DNA of 9,688 nt from a virus (taxonomy: Duplodnaviria; Heunggongvirae; Uroviricota; Caudoviricetes): the IMG/VR virus record IMGVR_UViG_2541047758_000002, positions 1-9,688 of that record; one strand, written 5' to 3'. This document shows, piece after piece, positions 2,077-7,024 of the stretch. A program made the translations under genes and the position numbers. A model generated the notes under the pieces. That model made no database searches. It was not told the origin of the DNA and saw nothing but the letters and a program-made list of their open reading frames with translations. Position 1 is the stretch's first letter; every line of letters starts with the position of its first letter.

Positions 2077-2680
2077 TTCGCGCCTGCTGCCGACCGGCTC
2101 ATCACCGCTTGAAGTTGCCGCCGCAAAAGCCTGTGCGGAAATTGAAAAAACGCCGGTCAGTATTCGTGAGCTGTGGAACCCGGACACCTGCCCGGCAAAT
2201 CTGCTGCCGTGGCTGGCGTGGTCATTTTCGGTCGACAGGTGGGATGATAAATGGCCGGAAGCGACCAAACGCGCTGTTATCCGCGATGCGTATTTCATTC
2301 ACTGCCATAAGGGCACTATTGGTGCGATTCGCCGTGTGGTGGAGCCGCTCGGCTATCTGATTGAGGTGAGGGAGTGGTGGCAGCTCAACGAGGAGCCGGG
2401 GACGTTCCGCATCGTTGTTGGCGTGCTTGAGCAGGGTATTACCGAGGAAATGTATCAGGAGCTGGAGCGTCTCGTTGCTGATGCAAAACCTGCAAGCCGC
2501 CATCTGACGGGACTGGCTATCAGTTTAAGTACAACCGGCAACATTTTTGCCGGTGCGGGATGCTATCACGGCGACGCCCTGACGGTTTATCCCTACACCC
2601 CGGAGGCCATTATTGTCGGAGGGGATTATTTCCCGGCCTCGGCCATTCATTTAATTGATAACCTGAGAGTAAACGCATGA
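2069..2680 (+). CDS. I: Baseplate/tail protein I (P2 gpI-like)
   Basis: 203-aa ORF whose ATG at 2069 overlaps the J stop (ATGAGTGA); synteny between J and the tail fibre gene. The start is uncertain because I recall P2 gpI as shorter, but no in-frame internal ATG lies near the expected position. Confidence 0.82.
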   Translation: MSDSRLLPTGSSPLEVAAAKACAEIEKTPVSIRELWNPDTCPANLLPWLAWSFSVDRWDDKWPEATKRAVIRDAYFIHCHKGTIGAIRRVVEPLGYLIEVREWWQLNEEPGTFRIVVGVLEQGITEEMYQELERLVADAKPASRHLTGLAISLSTTGNIFAGAGCYHGDALTVYPYTPEAIIVGGDYFPASAIHLIDNLRVNA

Positions 2681-3957
2681 CAGTGAAATACTACGCCATT
2701 CTGACTAATCAGGGCGCAGCACGGCTGGCTAACGCGACGATGCTCGGCAGTAAGCTGAATCTGACGCAAATGGCCGTTGGTGATGCGAATGGTGTCTTGC
2801 CGACACCAGACCCGGCACAGACAAAACTGATTAACCAGAAACGCATTGCACCGCTGAATCTTCTGAGTGTTGACCCGAATAACCAGAGCCAGATTATTGC
2901 GGAGCAAATCATCCCTGAGAACGAGGGCGGATTCTGGATCCGTGAGATTGGGCTTTATGATGATGAAGGCGTACTCATTGCGGTGGCGAACTGCCCGGAA
3001 ACGTACAAACCGCAGTTGCAGGAAGGCAGCGGTCGTACCCAGACTATCCGCATGATTCTGGTTGTCACGAATACCGAAGCTATCACGCTGAAAATCGACC
3101 CGTCGGTGGTACTGGCGACCCGTAAATACGTGGATGATGAAGTCCTGGAATTAAGGCTGTATGTGGATGACCAGATGAGAAACCATATTGCCGCACAGGA
3201 TCCTCATACCCAGTATGCACAGAAACATAATCCGACATTTACCGGAGAACCAAAAGCGCCGACGCCTGCTGCAGGAAATAACACCACGCGGATTGCGACC
3301 ACTGCGTTTGTTCAGGCGGTTATTACCGCTCTGATTAACGGTGCGCCTGCCACGCTGGATACACTGAAAGAAATTGCCGCAGCCATTAACAATGACCCGA
3401 AATTCAGCACCACCATTAACAATGCGCTGGCAGGTAAACAACCGCTGGACAATACGCTGACTAATTTGAGTGGAAAGGATGTAGCTGGTCTTCTCACATA
3501 CCTTGGAATAGGAGAAACGGGAAAATACGACATTCTGCCAGCATCAAGAGGAGGCACTGGAGCGTCAACTATAGCCGGAGCATTGATAAACTTTGGTCTG
3601 AGTGATTTAGTGACTGCCGGATTAGTACAGGTGGAATCTGGTACAGACTTTATTACTGCTAAGATTCCATTTCTGTCCGGTGGTAGAAAGCGATTCCTGA
3701 TGATACATGCCATCAAGGCGACAATGCCTGCAAATAATAACGGGTATAACCTTACTGTTACATTCCCAACTGCCTATGATAATGCACCGATACCAATTCT
3801 TGGCTCGACCGTAGGGTCGACTTCAACAACGGGTGGTACCACAGAGTCAATGAATATTTCATCAGTCACAAAATCGGGTTGCATCATTTCTTCAGCATGG
3901 CAAACATGGTCTGAGGGACCGGTATATCTTTTAACGATTGGAGGAGTTGCAGCATGA
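2677..3957 (+). CDS. H: Tail fibre protein (P2 gpH-like): constant N-terminal part to about 3503, variable C-terminal part 3505..3957 inside the invertible segment
   Basis: 426-aa ORF with start overlapping the I stop (ATGA). The N-terminus (MTVKYYAILTNQGAARLANA...) is the conserved fibre N-terminal domain shared by P2 H and Mu S-type fibres. The C-terminal third is AT-richer and begins at a hix/gix-like site. Confidence 0.9.
   Translation: MTVKYYAILTNQGAARLANATMLGSKLNLTQMAVGDANGVLPTPDPAQTKLINQKRIAPLNLLSVDPNNQSQIIAEQIIPENEGGFWIREIGLYDDEGVLIAVANCPETYKPQLQEGSGRTQTIRMILVVTNTEAITLKIDPSVVLATRKYVDDEVLELRLYVDDQMRNHIAAQDPHTQYAQKHNPTFTGEPKAPTPAAGNNTTRIATTAFVQAVITALINGAPATLDTLKEIAAAINNDPKFSTTINNALAGKQPLDNTLTNLSGKDVAGLLTYLGIGETGKYDILPASRGGTGASTIAGALINFGLSDLVTAGLVQVESGTDFITAKIPFLSGGRKRFLMIHAIKATMPANNNGYNLTVTFPTAYDNAPIPILGSTVGSTSTTGGTTESMNISSVTKSGCIISSAWQTWSEGPVYLLTIGGVAA
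3491..3516. repeat. Left crossover site of the invertible segment (hix/gix/cix-like 26-bp site), inside the H coding sequence
   Basis: TTCTCACATACC-TT-GGAATAGGAGAA. It matches the reverse complement of the right site (TTTTCTTAAACG-TT-GGTTTAGGAGAA) at 18 of 26 positions, 12 of 14 in the half that lies inside the segment. It has the 12-2-12 architecture of Hin-family recombination sites. Confidence 0.65.
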
Positions 3958-4340
3958 AATATTATTCACCTTCAATTAATGGATTTCCCGAACAAAAGAC
4001 TGATGACAGTATTGAGATCAGTGAAGAGGTCTGGAGAATACTTCTTAGTGAAATTTACTCAGGCCGGGAGTTATTTAACGATGGCGGCGTACCCGCTACC
4101 CGTGTGCCGCAACCTACGCAAGAACAAGTAATTGCAGCCGCAGAAAATGAGCGCCAACGATTGCTGAATTATGCTGATACCGTAATGCTCGACTGGCGTA
4201 CAGAATTGATGCTGGGTGAAATCAGCGACGCCAACAGGGCTAAATTGTCGGCGTGGCTGGCTTATAAAAATCAAGTTAAGTCGGTTGATGTGACAACTGA
4301 CCCTGAGCATGTTAACTGGCCTATTTCCCCGGAGGCGTAG
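3954..4340 (+). CDS. Tail fibre assembly chaperone (P2 gpG / Mu U / Tfa family) for the currently expressed fibre tip
   Basis: 128-aa ORF with start overlapping the H stop (ATGA). Sits immediately downstream of the fibre gene; the C-terminal region (...EHVNWPISPEA) resembles Tfa proteins. Confidence 0.8.
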   Translation: MKYYSPSINGFPEQKTDDSIEISEEVWRILLSEIYSGRELFNDGGVPATRVPQPTQEQVIAAAENERQRLLNYADTVMLDWRTELMLGEISDANRAKLSAWLAYKNQVKSVDVTTDPEHVNWPISPEA

Positions 4341-4752
4341 GCCATTCAATATCTGGCGCACCGGAAGTATCGACCAGTTCCAGTGCGTCCAGATAATCCA
4401 GCCACGAATTATATTGCGCCAGTTCCTCTCCTTTCAGACGACCAATCGCCGCTTTACCAGGCCATTGCTTACTGTTTATGTATTCGTTGACCTGATTAAT
4501 CAATTGCTGCTTTTCCAGTTCGGCTGCGGCAATTTGTTCCTCATGAGTTGGCGGTGGAATATCAATCCATGCTGGCATTCCGTCGATGACACCTCTGTAT
4601 TTTCCTTCTGGTGCTTCCTTCATAAATTCGGCGGCAACAGTGTCGTCAATTTCGATTCCATCATCGGGCCATTCGCCGGATTCCTGATAAGCGATTTTAA
4701 GCTCCACAGGGAAAAACGCATTTTTCTCGGCACTGAAAATATATTTCTGCAT
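4321..4752 (-). CDS. Alternative tail fibre assembly chaperone (Mu U'-like), partner of the silent fibre cassette
   Basis: 143-aa ORF on the - strand, starting 2 nt after the stop of the silent fibre cassette. The C-terminus (...DIEWPTPPGK) is Tfa-like. Its 3' end overlaps the + strand chaperone gene by 20 nt. Confidence 0.8.
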   Translation of the reverse strand: MQKYIFSAEKNAFFPVELKIAYQESGEWPDDGIEIDDTVAAEFMKEAPEGKYRGVIDGMPAWIDIPPPTHEEQIAAAELEKQQLINQVNEYINSKQWPGKAAIGRLKGEELAQYNSWLDYLDALELVDTSGAPDIEWPTPPGK

Positions 4753-4754
4753 TT

Positions 4755-5111
4755 CTACCGTCCTATCGAAATATAACTGAATCTGTATTGCTGTGAGATA
4801 TCACTGGTTGCCACACGCCACGCTGAATTACTGATATGTTCAAAATTTACAGACAAAACCTGCGGGGCAGGATTCGACGGGTCTGACTGAACGGCATCAG
4901 ACATAACACTGACTGAAACCATCGGCTGATTAGGGAATGGTATAGGGAAGTGTCCACTGATAAAGCGGGTCGTGTTTCCTGAAAAAGTGCCAAACTGAAC
5001 AATATATCCACCTGGTAGCCTGAACCATCCCGAACCAGAAGCGAATGCTCCCATATCAGGTATCTGATTATCTCCTGTGCCCACATCCCTTTTCGCCGCT
5101 TCTCCTAAACC
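4755..5111 (-). CDS. Silent alternative tail-fibre C-terminal cassette (Mu S'v-like); lacks its own start and would be expressed only after inversion fuses it to the constant part of H
   Basis: - strand reading frame open from the right crossover site to TAG at 4757..4755. Its first codons after the crossover core (GLGEAAK...) parallel the H codons after the left core (GIGETGK...). Frame arithmetic shows an in-frame fusion after inversion. Confidence 0.7.
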   Translation of the reverse strand, partial: GLGEAAKRDVGTGDNQIPDMGAFASGSGWFRLPGGYIVQFGTFSGNTTRFISGHFPIPFPNQPMVSVSVMSDAVQSDPSNPAPQVLSVNFEHISNSAWRVATSDISQQYRFSYISIGR

Positions 5112-5125
5112 AACGTTTAAGAAAA
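5100..5125. repeat. Right crossover site of the invertible segment (hix/gix/cix-like)
   Basis: TTCTCCTAAACC-AA-CGTTTAAGAAAA. Close to the Hin-family half-site consensus TTxTCxxAAACC with a 2-bp AA core, inverted relative to the left site (core TT on the + strand). Lies 55 bp upstream of the invertase start. Confidence 0.7.
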
Positions 5126-5180
5126 TGCAGAGGTAACAGCTAACTGGCATCATCCCCGGTTTTTATTCAGGGGGATAATC

Positions 5181-5774
5181 ATGCTTATTGGCTATGTACG
5201 CGTGTCAACAAATGACCAGAACACGGAATTGCAGCGTAACGCGCTGGAGTGTGCAGGATGTGAGCTGATTTTTGAGGATAAAATCAGCGGCACGAAGTCC
5301 GACAGGCCGGGACTGAAAAAACTGCTCAGAACATTATCAGCAGGTGACACTCTGGTGGTCTGGAAGCTGGACAGGCTGGGGCGTAGTATGCGGCATCTGG
5401 TCATTCTGGTTGAGGAACTGCGCGAACGCGGCGTTAATTTTCGCAGCCTGACGGATGCTATTGATACCAGCACGCCGATGGGGCGTTTTTTCTTTCATGT
5501 GATGGGTGCCCTGGCTGAAATGGAGCGAGAACTCATTGTCGAGCGGACACGCGCCGGACTGGAAGCGGCCAGAGCCAAAGGTCGTATTGGTGGCGGACGA
5601 CCGAAACTCACTGCGGGTGAGTGGGAGCAGGTCGGACGGTTGCTGGCTGCGGGGGAATCTCGTCAACGTGTGGCGCTGATTTTTGATATTGGTCTGTCCA
5701 CGCTCTATAAAAAATTCCCCTCATCAGCGACAAAGAATAAATTGTGTCATCCCTTAGCCAACCGGGACAAATAG
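5181..5774 (+). CDS. Site-specific serine DNA invertase (Hin/Gin/Cin/Pin family resolvase-invertase)
   Basis: 197-aa ORF; N-terminus MLIGYVRVSTNDQNTELQRNAL... carries the serine-recombinase catalytic motif (YVRVST) and the ...DRLGRS... region; C-terminal helix-turn-helix (...GLSTLYKKFP). Shine-Dalgarno GGGGGA lies 5 nt upstream. Adjacent to the invertible segment. Confidence 0.92.
   Translation: MLIGYVRVSTNDQNTELQRNALECAGCELIFEDKISGTKSDRPGLKKLLRTLSAGDTLVVWKLDRLGRSMRHLVILVEELRERGVNFRSLTDAIDTSTPMGRFFFHVMGALAEMERELIVERTRAGLEAARAKGRIGGGRPKLTAGEWEQVGRLLAAGESRQRVALIFDIGLSTLYKKFPSSATKNKLCHPLANRDK
5742..5763 (+). promoter_or_regulatory. Candidate late-promoter activator site upstream of FI, overlapping the 3' end of the invertase gene
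   Basis: TTGTGTCATCCCTTAGCCAACC about 90 nt upstream of the FI start; shares TTGTG-CAT-CC with the motif upstream of V. Confidence 0.3.
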
Positions 5775-5833: not shown

Positions 5834-7024
5834 ATGAGTGACTATCATCACGGCGTGCAGGTGCTGGAGATTAACGACGGCACCCGCGTCATTTCCACCG
5901 TATCCACTGCCATTGTTGGCATGGTCTGCACGGCCAGCGATGCGGATGCGGAAACCTTCCCCCTCAATAAACCGGTGCTGATTACCAATGTGCAGAGCGC
6001 AATTGCAAAGGCCGGTAAAAAAGGCACGCTGGCGGCATCGTTGCAGGCCATCGCCGACCAGTCAAAACCGGTCACCGTTGTCGTGCGTGTGGAAGACGGC
6101 ACCGGCGACGACGAGGAAACGAAACTCGCGCAGACCGTTTCCAATATCATCGGCACCACCGACGAAAACGGTCAGTACACCGGACTGAAAGCCCTGCTGG
6201 CGGCGGAGTCGGTAACCGGTGTTAAACCGCGTATTCTCGGCGTGCCGGGACTGGACACCAAAGAGGTGGCGGTTGCACTGGCATCAGTATGTCAGAAGCT
6301 GCGCGCTTTCGGGTATATCAGCGCATGGGGCTGTAAAACCATTTCCGAGGTGAAAGCCTACCGCCAGAATTTCAGCCAGCGTGAGCTGATGGTCATCTGG
6401 CCGGATTTCCTCGCATGGGATACGGTCACCAGTACCACCGCCACCGCGTATGCCACTGCCCGTGCACTGGGCCTGCGCGCTAAAATCGACCAGGAGCAGG
6501 GCTGGCATAAAACGCTGTCCAATGTCGGGGTGAACGGTGTTACCGGCATCAGCGCATCTGTATTCTGGGATTTGCAGGAGTCCGGCACCGATGCTGACCT
6601 GCTTAACGAGTCAGGCGTCACAACGCTGATTCGCCGTGACGGTTTCCGCTTCTGGGGTAACCGTACCTGTTCTGATGACCCGCTGTTCCTCTTTGAAAAC
6701 TACACCCGCACCGCGCAGGTGCTGGCCGATACGATGGCTGAGGCGCACATGTGGGCGGTGGACAAGCCCATCACCGCAACGCTGATTCGCGACATCGTTG
6801 ACGGCATCAATGCCAAATTCCGTGAGCTGAAAACAAACGGCTATATCGTGGATGCGACCTGCTGGTTCAGCGAAGAATCCAACGATGCGGAAACCCTTAA
6901 GGCCGGAAAACTGTATATCGACTACGACTATACCCCGGTGCCTCCTCTTGAAAACCTGACCCTGCGCCAGCGTATTACCGATAAATACCTGGCAAATCTG
7001 GTCACCTCGGTTAACAGCAATTAA
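5834..7024 (+). CDS. FI: Contractile tail sheath protein (P2 gpFI-like)
   Basis: 396-aa ORF, the same length as P2 FI; GGAG ribosome-binding site upstream; followed by the tube gene. Confidence 0.92.
   Translation: MSDYHHGVQVLEINDGTRVISTVSTAIVGMVCTASDADAETFPLNKPVLITNVQSAIAKAGKKGTLAASLQAIADQSKPVTVVVRVEDGTGDDEETKLAQTVSNIIGTTDENGQYTGLKALLAAESVTGVKPRILGVPGLDTKEVAVALASVCQKLRAFGYISAWGCKTISEVKAYRQNFSQRELMVIWPDFLAWDTVTSTTATAYATARALGLRAKIDQEQGWHKTLSNVGVNGVTGISASVFWDLQESGTDADLLNESGVTTLIRRDGFRFWGNRTCSDDPLFLFENYTRTAQVLADTMAEAHMWAVDKPITATLIRDIVDGINAKFRELKTNGYIVDATCWFSEESNDAETLKAGKLYIDYDYTPVPPLENLTLRQRITDKYLANLVTSVNSN

Follow-up and report, generated by a model that had tools for sequence, protein, structure and literature searches.

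The prophage region described here very probably carries an invertible DNA segment of the Din family, which joins the constant part of tail-fibre gene H, in frame, to one or the other of two variable cassettes (A and B). Both orientations of this same element occur in nature, and the exchange that relates them lies inside four bases, TTGG, at the boundary between constant and variable sequence. These positions, like all others given below, are those of the window, that is, the whole 9,688-nt stretch of DNA that was analysed. The system is a known one that was read correctly and is no discovery, and published work already covers inversion in P2-like prophages.

Positions 1823-11510 of scaffold KE699873.1 (GCA_000457655.1) match the window at 100% identity, and its genes mark it as the tail region of an E. 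coli prophage that is P2-like (Peduovirus-type). Baseplate genes V, W and J precede I and H, and tube and tape-measure genes follow the sheath gene. This is the order of a P2-like (Peduoviridae) tail module, V-W-J-I-H ... FI-FII-E-T, with P2-type proteins, and the source contig encodes the domains Phage_base_V, GPW_gp25, Baseplate_J, Phage_tube, Phage_P2_GpE and PhageMin_Tail. The nearest annotated phage is the Peduovirus Salmonella phage MET_P1_103_31, at 96.8% identity with 74% of the query covered. The invertible segment, 1.6 kb in length, sits between H and the sheath gene, and the features of the locus are as follows.

2069-2680: gene I, with a Tail_P2_I domain (Pfam)
2677-3957, plus strand: tail-fibre gene H, an open reading frame of 426 aa
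2677-3504, plus strand: constant N-terminal part of H, P2 gpH-type, 276 codons (open reading frame, Pfam)
3491-3516: left crossover site, Din/pix type, 12-2-12, TTCTCACATACC TT GGAATAGGAGAA, core TT at 3503-3504
3505-3957, plus strand: variable cassette A, the one now expressed, 150 residues at the C-terminus of the fibre (GIGETGKYDILPASRGG...)
3954-4340, plus strand: tail-fibre assembly chaperone A, 128 aa (PF02413 Caudo_TAP, E=1.1e-19)
4321-4752, minus strand: tail-fibre assembly chaperone B, 143 aa (PF02413, E=9.8e-35)
4755-5111, minus strand: variable cassette B, 118 residues (GLGEAAKRDVGTGDN...) and a stop at 4755-4757, unjoined to H here
5100-5125: right crossover site, TTCTCCTAAACC AA CGTTTAAGAAAA, core AA at 5112-5113
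5112-5153, minus strand: putative 14-codon ATG leader (MMPVSCYLCIFLNV), within the open reading frame 4755-5153
5181-5774, plus strand: Pin-like small serine DNA invertase, 197 aa (Pfam and alignment)
5199-5270, plus strand: stretch homologous to the P1 cin enhancer, of putative role (57/72 identical to L004 positions 5679-5750)
5834-7024: tail-sheath gene (sheath domain, Pfam)

The anatomy is that of a fibre switch, with a constant N-terminus outside the segment, two opposed units of cassette plus chaperone, and both fusions in frame. The constant part matches PF12571 (Phage_tail_fib) over H residues 1-150 (E=2.4e-62, Pfam), and its final codon, CTT (Leu, 3502-3504), includes the 2-bp core. 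Chaperone A is co-oriented with cassette A and chaperone B with cassette B, and the 3' ends of the two chaperone genes overlap by 20 nt. Cassette B encodes a Gp53-like_C domain (PF21882, E=3e-09, Pfam); annotation pipelines report the unfused cassette as a 'gp53-like domain-containing protein' in its own right, and the switch is thereby hidden. A PDB sequence search with H gave weak, partial matches only (9d93, 7z47), and an exact look-up of the 143-aa chaperone B returned the window's own scaffold as its sole match.

The two 26-bp crossover sites lie in inverted orientation with matching cores, TT and AA, as in other Din-family systems, and the coordinates that an earlier note on this DNA had assigned to the sites and their cores all hold. 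Compared as inverted repeats they are identical at 19/26 positions, and together they form the longest inverted repeat within 3300-5300. No other stretch of the window comes within three mismatches of the 12-2-12 consensus; 0.01 such matches would be expected by chance, and none of 200 shuffled windows held two or more. The right site agrees with e14 pixR at 24/26 positions and the left site with the published pixL at 19/26 (site table in PMC3241671). The two inner half-sites, GGAATAGGAGAA and GGTTTAGGAGAA, agree at 10/12 positions, both read GG(A/T)(A/T)TAGGAGAA, and encode GIGE and GLGE, respectively; the claim that near-identical half-sites place G-(I/L)-G-E just after the core at both junctions is therefore confirmed. 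As a variant of GGTTTRGGAGAA the left inner half-site is rare, and it is off consensus at two positions. Its GGAATA occurs in 1 of 49 distinct cassettes surveyed, where it is the single variant at positions 3-4, and it keeps A/T pairs there. Given that this half-site is rare and departs from the consensus, the inversion rate may be low.

Inversion in silico supports the interpretation, put forward in the earlier note, that the sites are placed so as to give an in-frame fibre fusion. The codon phases are as that note had them, (3505-2677) mod 3 and (5153-5111) mod 3 both being 0. Translation of the inverted sequence from 2677 yields an open frame of 394 aa (...LTNLSGKDVAGLLTYLGLGEAAKRDVGTGDN...) with a TAG stop that maps to 4757..4755, as predicted, and its junction, ...AGLLTYL/GLGEAAKRDVGTGDN... 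(a slash marks the point just after the core throughout), is in frame with no intervening stop. The same product is obtained whether 3505..5111, 3504..5112 or 3503..5113 is inverted. The reciprocal junction is open as well, MMPVSCYLCIFLNV/GIGETGKYD..., and gives 164 aa. Core and inner half-site thus lie in frame inside the fibre reading frame, and the crossover site does double as coding sequence, although to say that the junction peptide is dictated by the half-site is safer than to give it the structural name of linker, as had been done. In-frame placement of this kind restates a known property of the Hin/Gin/Cin/Pin (Din-family) fibre-switching systems.

Natural isomers, in which one constant H part is joined to cassette A or to cassette B, were found by way of a protein search, since a search of 5,426 complete E. 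coli genomes with the junction of H with cassette A gave no match that spanned 80% or more of the query. A 394-aa protein annotated as an Escherichia coli 'phage tail protein' (P0019) is identical to the predicted fusion at every residue. It is encoded by an E. coli sister assembly, L019 (GCA_000457635.1, KE699863.1), which aligns with the window as given in three pieces, the middle one reversed. With the window inverted in silico it aligns colinearly and without a gap over 4932 nt, all but 4 of them identical. Both L019 junctions match the prediction letter for letter. A Logan assembly (L016) is flipped in the same way, and cassette B is fused to the constant part of H not only in these two assemblies but also in 21 complete E. 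coli genomes, where the junction is contiguous at 96-98% identity. In the flipped isomers the gene for the 394-aa fibre and, downstream of it, that for chaperone B share one strand. The orientation of the window is found again in L010, L011 and L012, and the exact 426-aa H has this one orientation in all four assemblies that carry it. An exact-pattern scan of one genome per species found neither the parental nor the recombinant left junction. Two viral contigs that emerged from the exact-pattern junction scan were set aside, as they share just the last 175 nt of H (83%) and represent a different element.

The position of the exchange was mapped by shifting the assumed boundaries of the inversion one base at a time and counting mismatches to L019. 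The count reaches its minimum only for boundaries 3503 to 3507, which places the exchange inside TTGG (3503-3506). This interval contains the proposed 2-bp core; the isomers resolve to 4 bp, within which TT and GG are inseparable. An independent case, a related element in two complete E. coli genomes, XH989 and EC15, tells the same story: the 1883 bp between its cores are exact reverse complements in the two strains, the flanks are identical over 200/200 and 700/700 bases, and the exchange is confined to TTGGTTT, which is compatible with the core. The invertase of that element is 96% identical to the one in the window and of the same extended 197-aa type. Because L019 is flipped with only 4 differences in 4932 nt, inversion has taken place very recently in this lineage and with these exact sites, and the sister assemblies suggest that switching may be ongoing in this strain.

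The gene adjoining the right site encodes a recombinase of the Din family, with an N-terminal resolvase domain (PF00239 Resolvase, E=2.9e-52) that contains Ser9 and a C-terminal helix-turn-helix (PF02796 HTH_7, E=4e-11; both Pfam). Its identity is 86% with e14 PinE, 78% with P1 Cin and 76% with Mu Gin, and in the alignment the nucleophile Ser9 and 125 other columns are invariant. It differs in having a 13-residue C-terminal extension and in reading GGGRP in place of GGRRP. In the Din family a Fis-dependent recombinational enhancer acts in cis, and for Gin, Cin and Hin it is part of the 5' region of the invertase gene. Near the 5' end of the invertase gene in the window lies the stretch related to the cin enhancer, but the rest of the gene matches cin at 235/328 positions (72%), so that 57/72 is about what coding conservation alone would give. 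Crude Fis-like 15-mers occur at positions 22 and 71 of the gene, a placing also seen in Mu gin, in a scan that is ambiguous. When the surroundings of the invertase start were scanned for promoters, no sigma-70-like site and one terminator-like hairpin emerged. Other Pin-family enzymes in the same cell have been reported to flip the e14 segment (PMC12529663). The adjacent gene is hence best regarded as the candidate enzyme, and the segment could also be inverted in trans by other Pin-family invertases of the same genome.

The biochemistry of related systems may inform how the segment inverts. The Gin mechanism has been described, including the scheme of subunit rotation (PMC3575834), and breakage and exchange take place at two core residues (PMC3241671). 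By family resemblance, the Pin-like invertase would bind as dimers to both 26-bp sites, attack by Ser9 would produce double-strand breaks with a 2-bp stagger at the TT/AA cores (3503-3504 and 5112-5113), and half of the synapse would rotate through 180 degrees before religation, leaving 3505-5111 flipped. Cleavage at the TT/AA dinucleotide would be expected on these grounds, and dependence on Fis and an enhancer is likewise something we infer. In the state present in the window, the 276 constant codons with cassette A (GIGETGKYD...) encode a 426-aa fibre; in the flipped state, the same codons with cassette B (GLGEAAKRDV...) encode one of 394 aa, and each state has the matching assembly chaperone downstream on the same strand. 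Both fusions are in frame because both cores directly precede a codon start and the inner half-sites are alike. The two fibres would presumably confer different host ranges.

The codon phase at the junction is shared with the classical systems. In translated reference records, the fibre-side junctions read ..IQNL/GLQE in Mu, ..IQYL/GLRE in P1 and ..LENL/GLGE in e14, and those of the window ..LTYL/GIGE and GLGE. In all four the first base past the core is a codon start, and the core occupies positions 2-3 of a Leu codon. The comparison with Mu S/S' and P1 S that the earlier note had proposed accordingly shows equal codon phase and a similar junction peptide. To gauge how general this is, 79 viral contigs encoding Pin-like invertases were scanned for 12-2-12 sites. 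In 138/143 sites a frame open for at least 50 codons runs into the segment, starting exactly after the core, and in 138/143 that frame begins with G (D once) followed by L, I or F.

It might be supposed that the two sites merely happen to be in frame with each other here, as a random pair of sites would be in one case out of three. The recurrence of the same phase in Mu, P1, e14 and nearly all surveyed sites speaks against this, as do the 118 further codons over which the fusion frame continues, the placing of its stop 2 nt away from where the matching chaperone gene starts, and the fact that the fusion is a widespread annotated protein; we consider coincidence hardly credible. The flips themselves could in principle have another origin, RecA-dependent homologous recombination between short repeats or faulty assembly, and the natural isomers do bound the exchange to 4-7 bp while saying nothing of the enzyme. 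However, no run of identical bases common to the repeats is longer than about 12, far below what efficient RecA recombination uses, and a repeat shorter than the sequencing reads means that assemblers cannot pick an orientation arbitrarily. Complete genomes also show both orientations, and the exchange falls at the midpoint of canonical 12-2-12 Din sites, next to which an intact Pin homologue is encoded. The probability of either origin is accordingly minute.

A more serious concern is that the geometry has been inherited while this copy no longer inverts, frozen, for instance, by its deviant GGAATA half-site or by the extended C-terminus of its invertase. The rarity of the half-site (1/49) would fit a relic, as would the 13-residue extension with its GGGRP and the single orientation shared by the four assemblies with the exact 426-aa H. 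Two relatives, L017 and L018, are clearly locked, both having lost the right site and the invertase gene. Yet L019, so close to the window in sequence, is flipped and carries the GGAATA half-site now beside the invertase gene, and the extended type of invertase adjoins the element that is inverted between XH989 and EC15. That the present copy is a relic is thus very unlikely, if somewhat less so than the readings above.

Read as a Din-family switch, the locus has a close counterpart in the e14 P segment of E. coli K-12 with its invertase PinE, which was reportedly described by Plasterk and van de Putte in 1985. The order is the same in both: constant N-terminus, site, cassette plus chaperone, opposed chaperone plus cassette, site and invertase gene. 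The junction (..NL/GLGE) and the invertase-side leader (MMPF..INV) are also the same. An e14-like prophage, L007, has the two cassettes of the window at 93% identity, cassette A included, behind a quite different constant part. The e14 constant part is of StfP type, whereas that of the window is P2 gpH-type with P2 baseplate and sheath genes around it. The left outer half-sites differ (TTCTCACATACC in the window, CTCTCGAAAACC in e14), and PinE lacks the C-terminal extension.

More distant members of the family show the same design. The Mu G segment, inverted by Gin (S/S', U/U'), has 12-2-12 sites at the constant/variable boundary of the fibre gene, the same codon phase, an L/GL.E junction and an invertase gene adjoining the right site; it differs in its core (TC/GA), its half-sites (TTATCCAAAACC / GGTTTACAGGAA), its length of 3 kb with much longer variable parts, and its other tail lineage. 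The P1 C segment with Cin, together with p15B Min and Shigella PinB, is a system of the same kind, and its junction has the phase seen in the window. The P1 record annotates cixL and cixR; it assigns the crossover to the central dinucleotide, and an enhancer to the 5' part of cin. P1 differs in that cin reads towards the segment and overlaps cixL with its 3' end, so that there is no ATG leader there, and in a segment of 4.2 kb against 1.6 kb; p15B differs in its six sites and multiple inversions. Among P2-like prophages, those of EPEC E2348/69 have an invertase and inverted repeats that invert experimentally to give alternative C-termini (Goldberg et al. 2014, PMC4272514). Their cassette content differs from that of the window, which pairs the common GLGEAAKRDV with the rare GIGETGKYD of the GGAATA half-site. 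The same module occurs in many annotated P2-like phages, among them Salmonella phage MET_P1_103_31, Escherichia phages 500465-2 and pro483, and 'P2' from O157:H43 T22.

There is reason to think that recombinase binding, and not the fibre, sets the sequence at the junction. Among 49 distinct cassettes, the information content at third codon positions is 1.86, 0.91, 1.34 and 1.67 bits within the 12-nt inner half-site, as against 0.07-0.73 bits in the next six codons, with the qualification that choosing the sites by similarity to the consensus inflates conservation inside the 26 bp, lenient though the threshold was. Because synonymous positions inside the half-site are nearly fixed, the DNA half-site seems to dictate the G-(L/I)-G-E peptide and not the reverse, and the peptide would be a by-product of a recombinase-binding half-site that lies inside coding sequence. 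The flanks in the survey are of three kinds, ..YL for the P2 H-type constant part, ..NL for the e14-type constant part and ..NV for the invertase-side leader, and cassettes such as GLGEAAKRDV and GLGEGSALPV are common to all three. Given that the same cassettes stand behind different constant parts, the site-encoded junction serves as a common adapter for swaps of fibre tips from one phage lineage to another. The adapter idea for horizontal exchange of fibre tips is said to go back to Sandmeier in 1994.

On the other side of the segment, the short, conserved leader is in frame with whichever cassette adjoins the invertase gene and so keeps the unfused cassette within an open reading frame. The 164-aa reciprocal frame predicted after inversion is identical to one called in L019, and the ..NV leader is present at invertase-proximal sites of the 79 surveyed contigs. 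For the leader, too, the scan near the invertase start gave no promoter-like site. An equivalent product, StfE2 of e14, has been claimed to block adsorption of T2 (2025, PMC12529663). It is conceivable, if rather doubtful, that the 'silent' cassette is made as a free, truncated receptor-binding tip (132 or 164 aa) with a receptor-blocking or superinfection-exclusion role; if this were true, inversion would toggle two products at once in P2-like prophages.

The locus is a further instance of a live fibre switch in a P2-like prophage and leaves existing knowledge unchanged. It also confirms that a Din-type inversion switch, codon phase included, can be recognised correctly from raw sequence alone. 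The flipped state of L019 shows that a GGAATA half-site still recombines, a natural case of tolerance to T-to-A changes at positions 3-4 from the core. Finally, P2-type and e14-type tails share one cassette pair, which illustrates how the site-encoded junction acts as a universal adapter when fibre tips are exchanged horizontally.

A short reading frame lies on the minus strand between the right crossover site and the invertase gene, and it opens onto whichever cassette adjoins the invertase flank. This putative leader and two further features are located as follows.

5112-5153, minus strand: putative 14-codon leader MMPVSCYLCIFLNV with an ATG start, in the flank that separates the right site from the invertase gene
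4321-4340: 20-nt overlap between the 3' ends of the two convergent chaperone genes
5142-5161, plus strand: terminator-like hairpin followed by a T-run, just 5' of the invertase ribosome-binding site

An equivalent leader ORF is present in L001, L006 and the sister E. coli contig of flipped orientation, L019 (5111-5605), and a leader ending in ..NV is repeated at invertase-proximal sites among the 79 viral contigs surveyed. Because the ATG leader is in frame with the adjoining cassette, annotators name a separate 'gp53-like' protein of 132 or 164 aa there, and the e14 equivalent of this product has been given an anti-phage role in a 2025 paper (PMC12529663).

The hairpin could shield the invertase gene from late-operon read-through leaving the invertible segment, and a promoter scan around the invertase start found no sigma-70-like promoter. 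The invertase itself (5181-5774) carries GGGRPK in place of the GGRRPK of Pin and Cin, and it ends in a 13-residue C-terminal extension (..SSATKNKLCHPLANRDK) that is common to P2-like relatives, whereas e14 Pin lacks such an extension; the added residues stop <60 nt before the start of the sheath gene. The overlap of the convergent chaperone genes means that one stretch of DNA encodes both of their C-termini, ..NWPISPEA on one strand and ..EWPTPPGK on the other. An imperfect inverted repeat of 15 nt spans this overlap (4309-4323 and 4338-4352), and in the related XH989 element the overlap is 29 nt.

Positions 1-95 of the window occur twice in its source scaffold, with the extra copy immediately 5' (L012 1718-1812 and 1823-1917), a duplication that probably arose as an artefact of assembly. 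At the window ends the tail-completion and tape-measure genes are truncated; together with the duplication, this suggests that the window is a single contig between scaffold gaps. Two 2.2-kb Logan short-read contigs, L013 (SRR784021) and L014 (SRR958205), are identical to window 2161/2192-4358 and stop just past the first chaperone gene, at no crossover site; these ends likely reflect repetition of the second cassette and its chaperone in other prophages of those genomes. The relatives L017 (GCA_051196315.1) and L018 (SRR34342543) (~6350-6570) are degraded and locked in the flipped state: both follow the inverted window only as far as inverted coordinate 5045 and then switch to an ogr-like gene. 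Deletion has removed the right site together with the invertase gene and the tail genes that lie downstream.

The window's cassette pair and chaperones are also present, at 93% identity, in an e14-like prophage of E. coli USDA-ARS-USMARC-49610 (NZ_CP104123.1, 2215-4741), whose baseplate is of the Mu type and which has the rare GGAATA half-site in common with the window. There the cassettes adjoin pinE and sit behind a constant fibre part unrelated to that of the window. The entire invertible module has thus been transferred between tail lineages.
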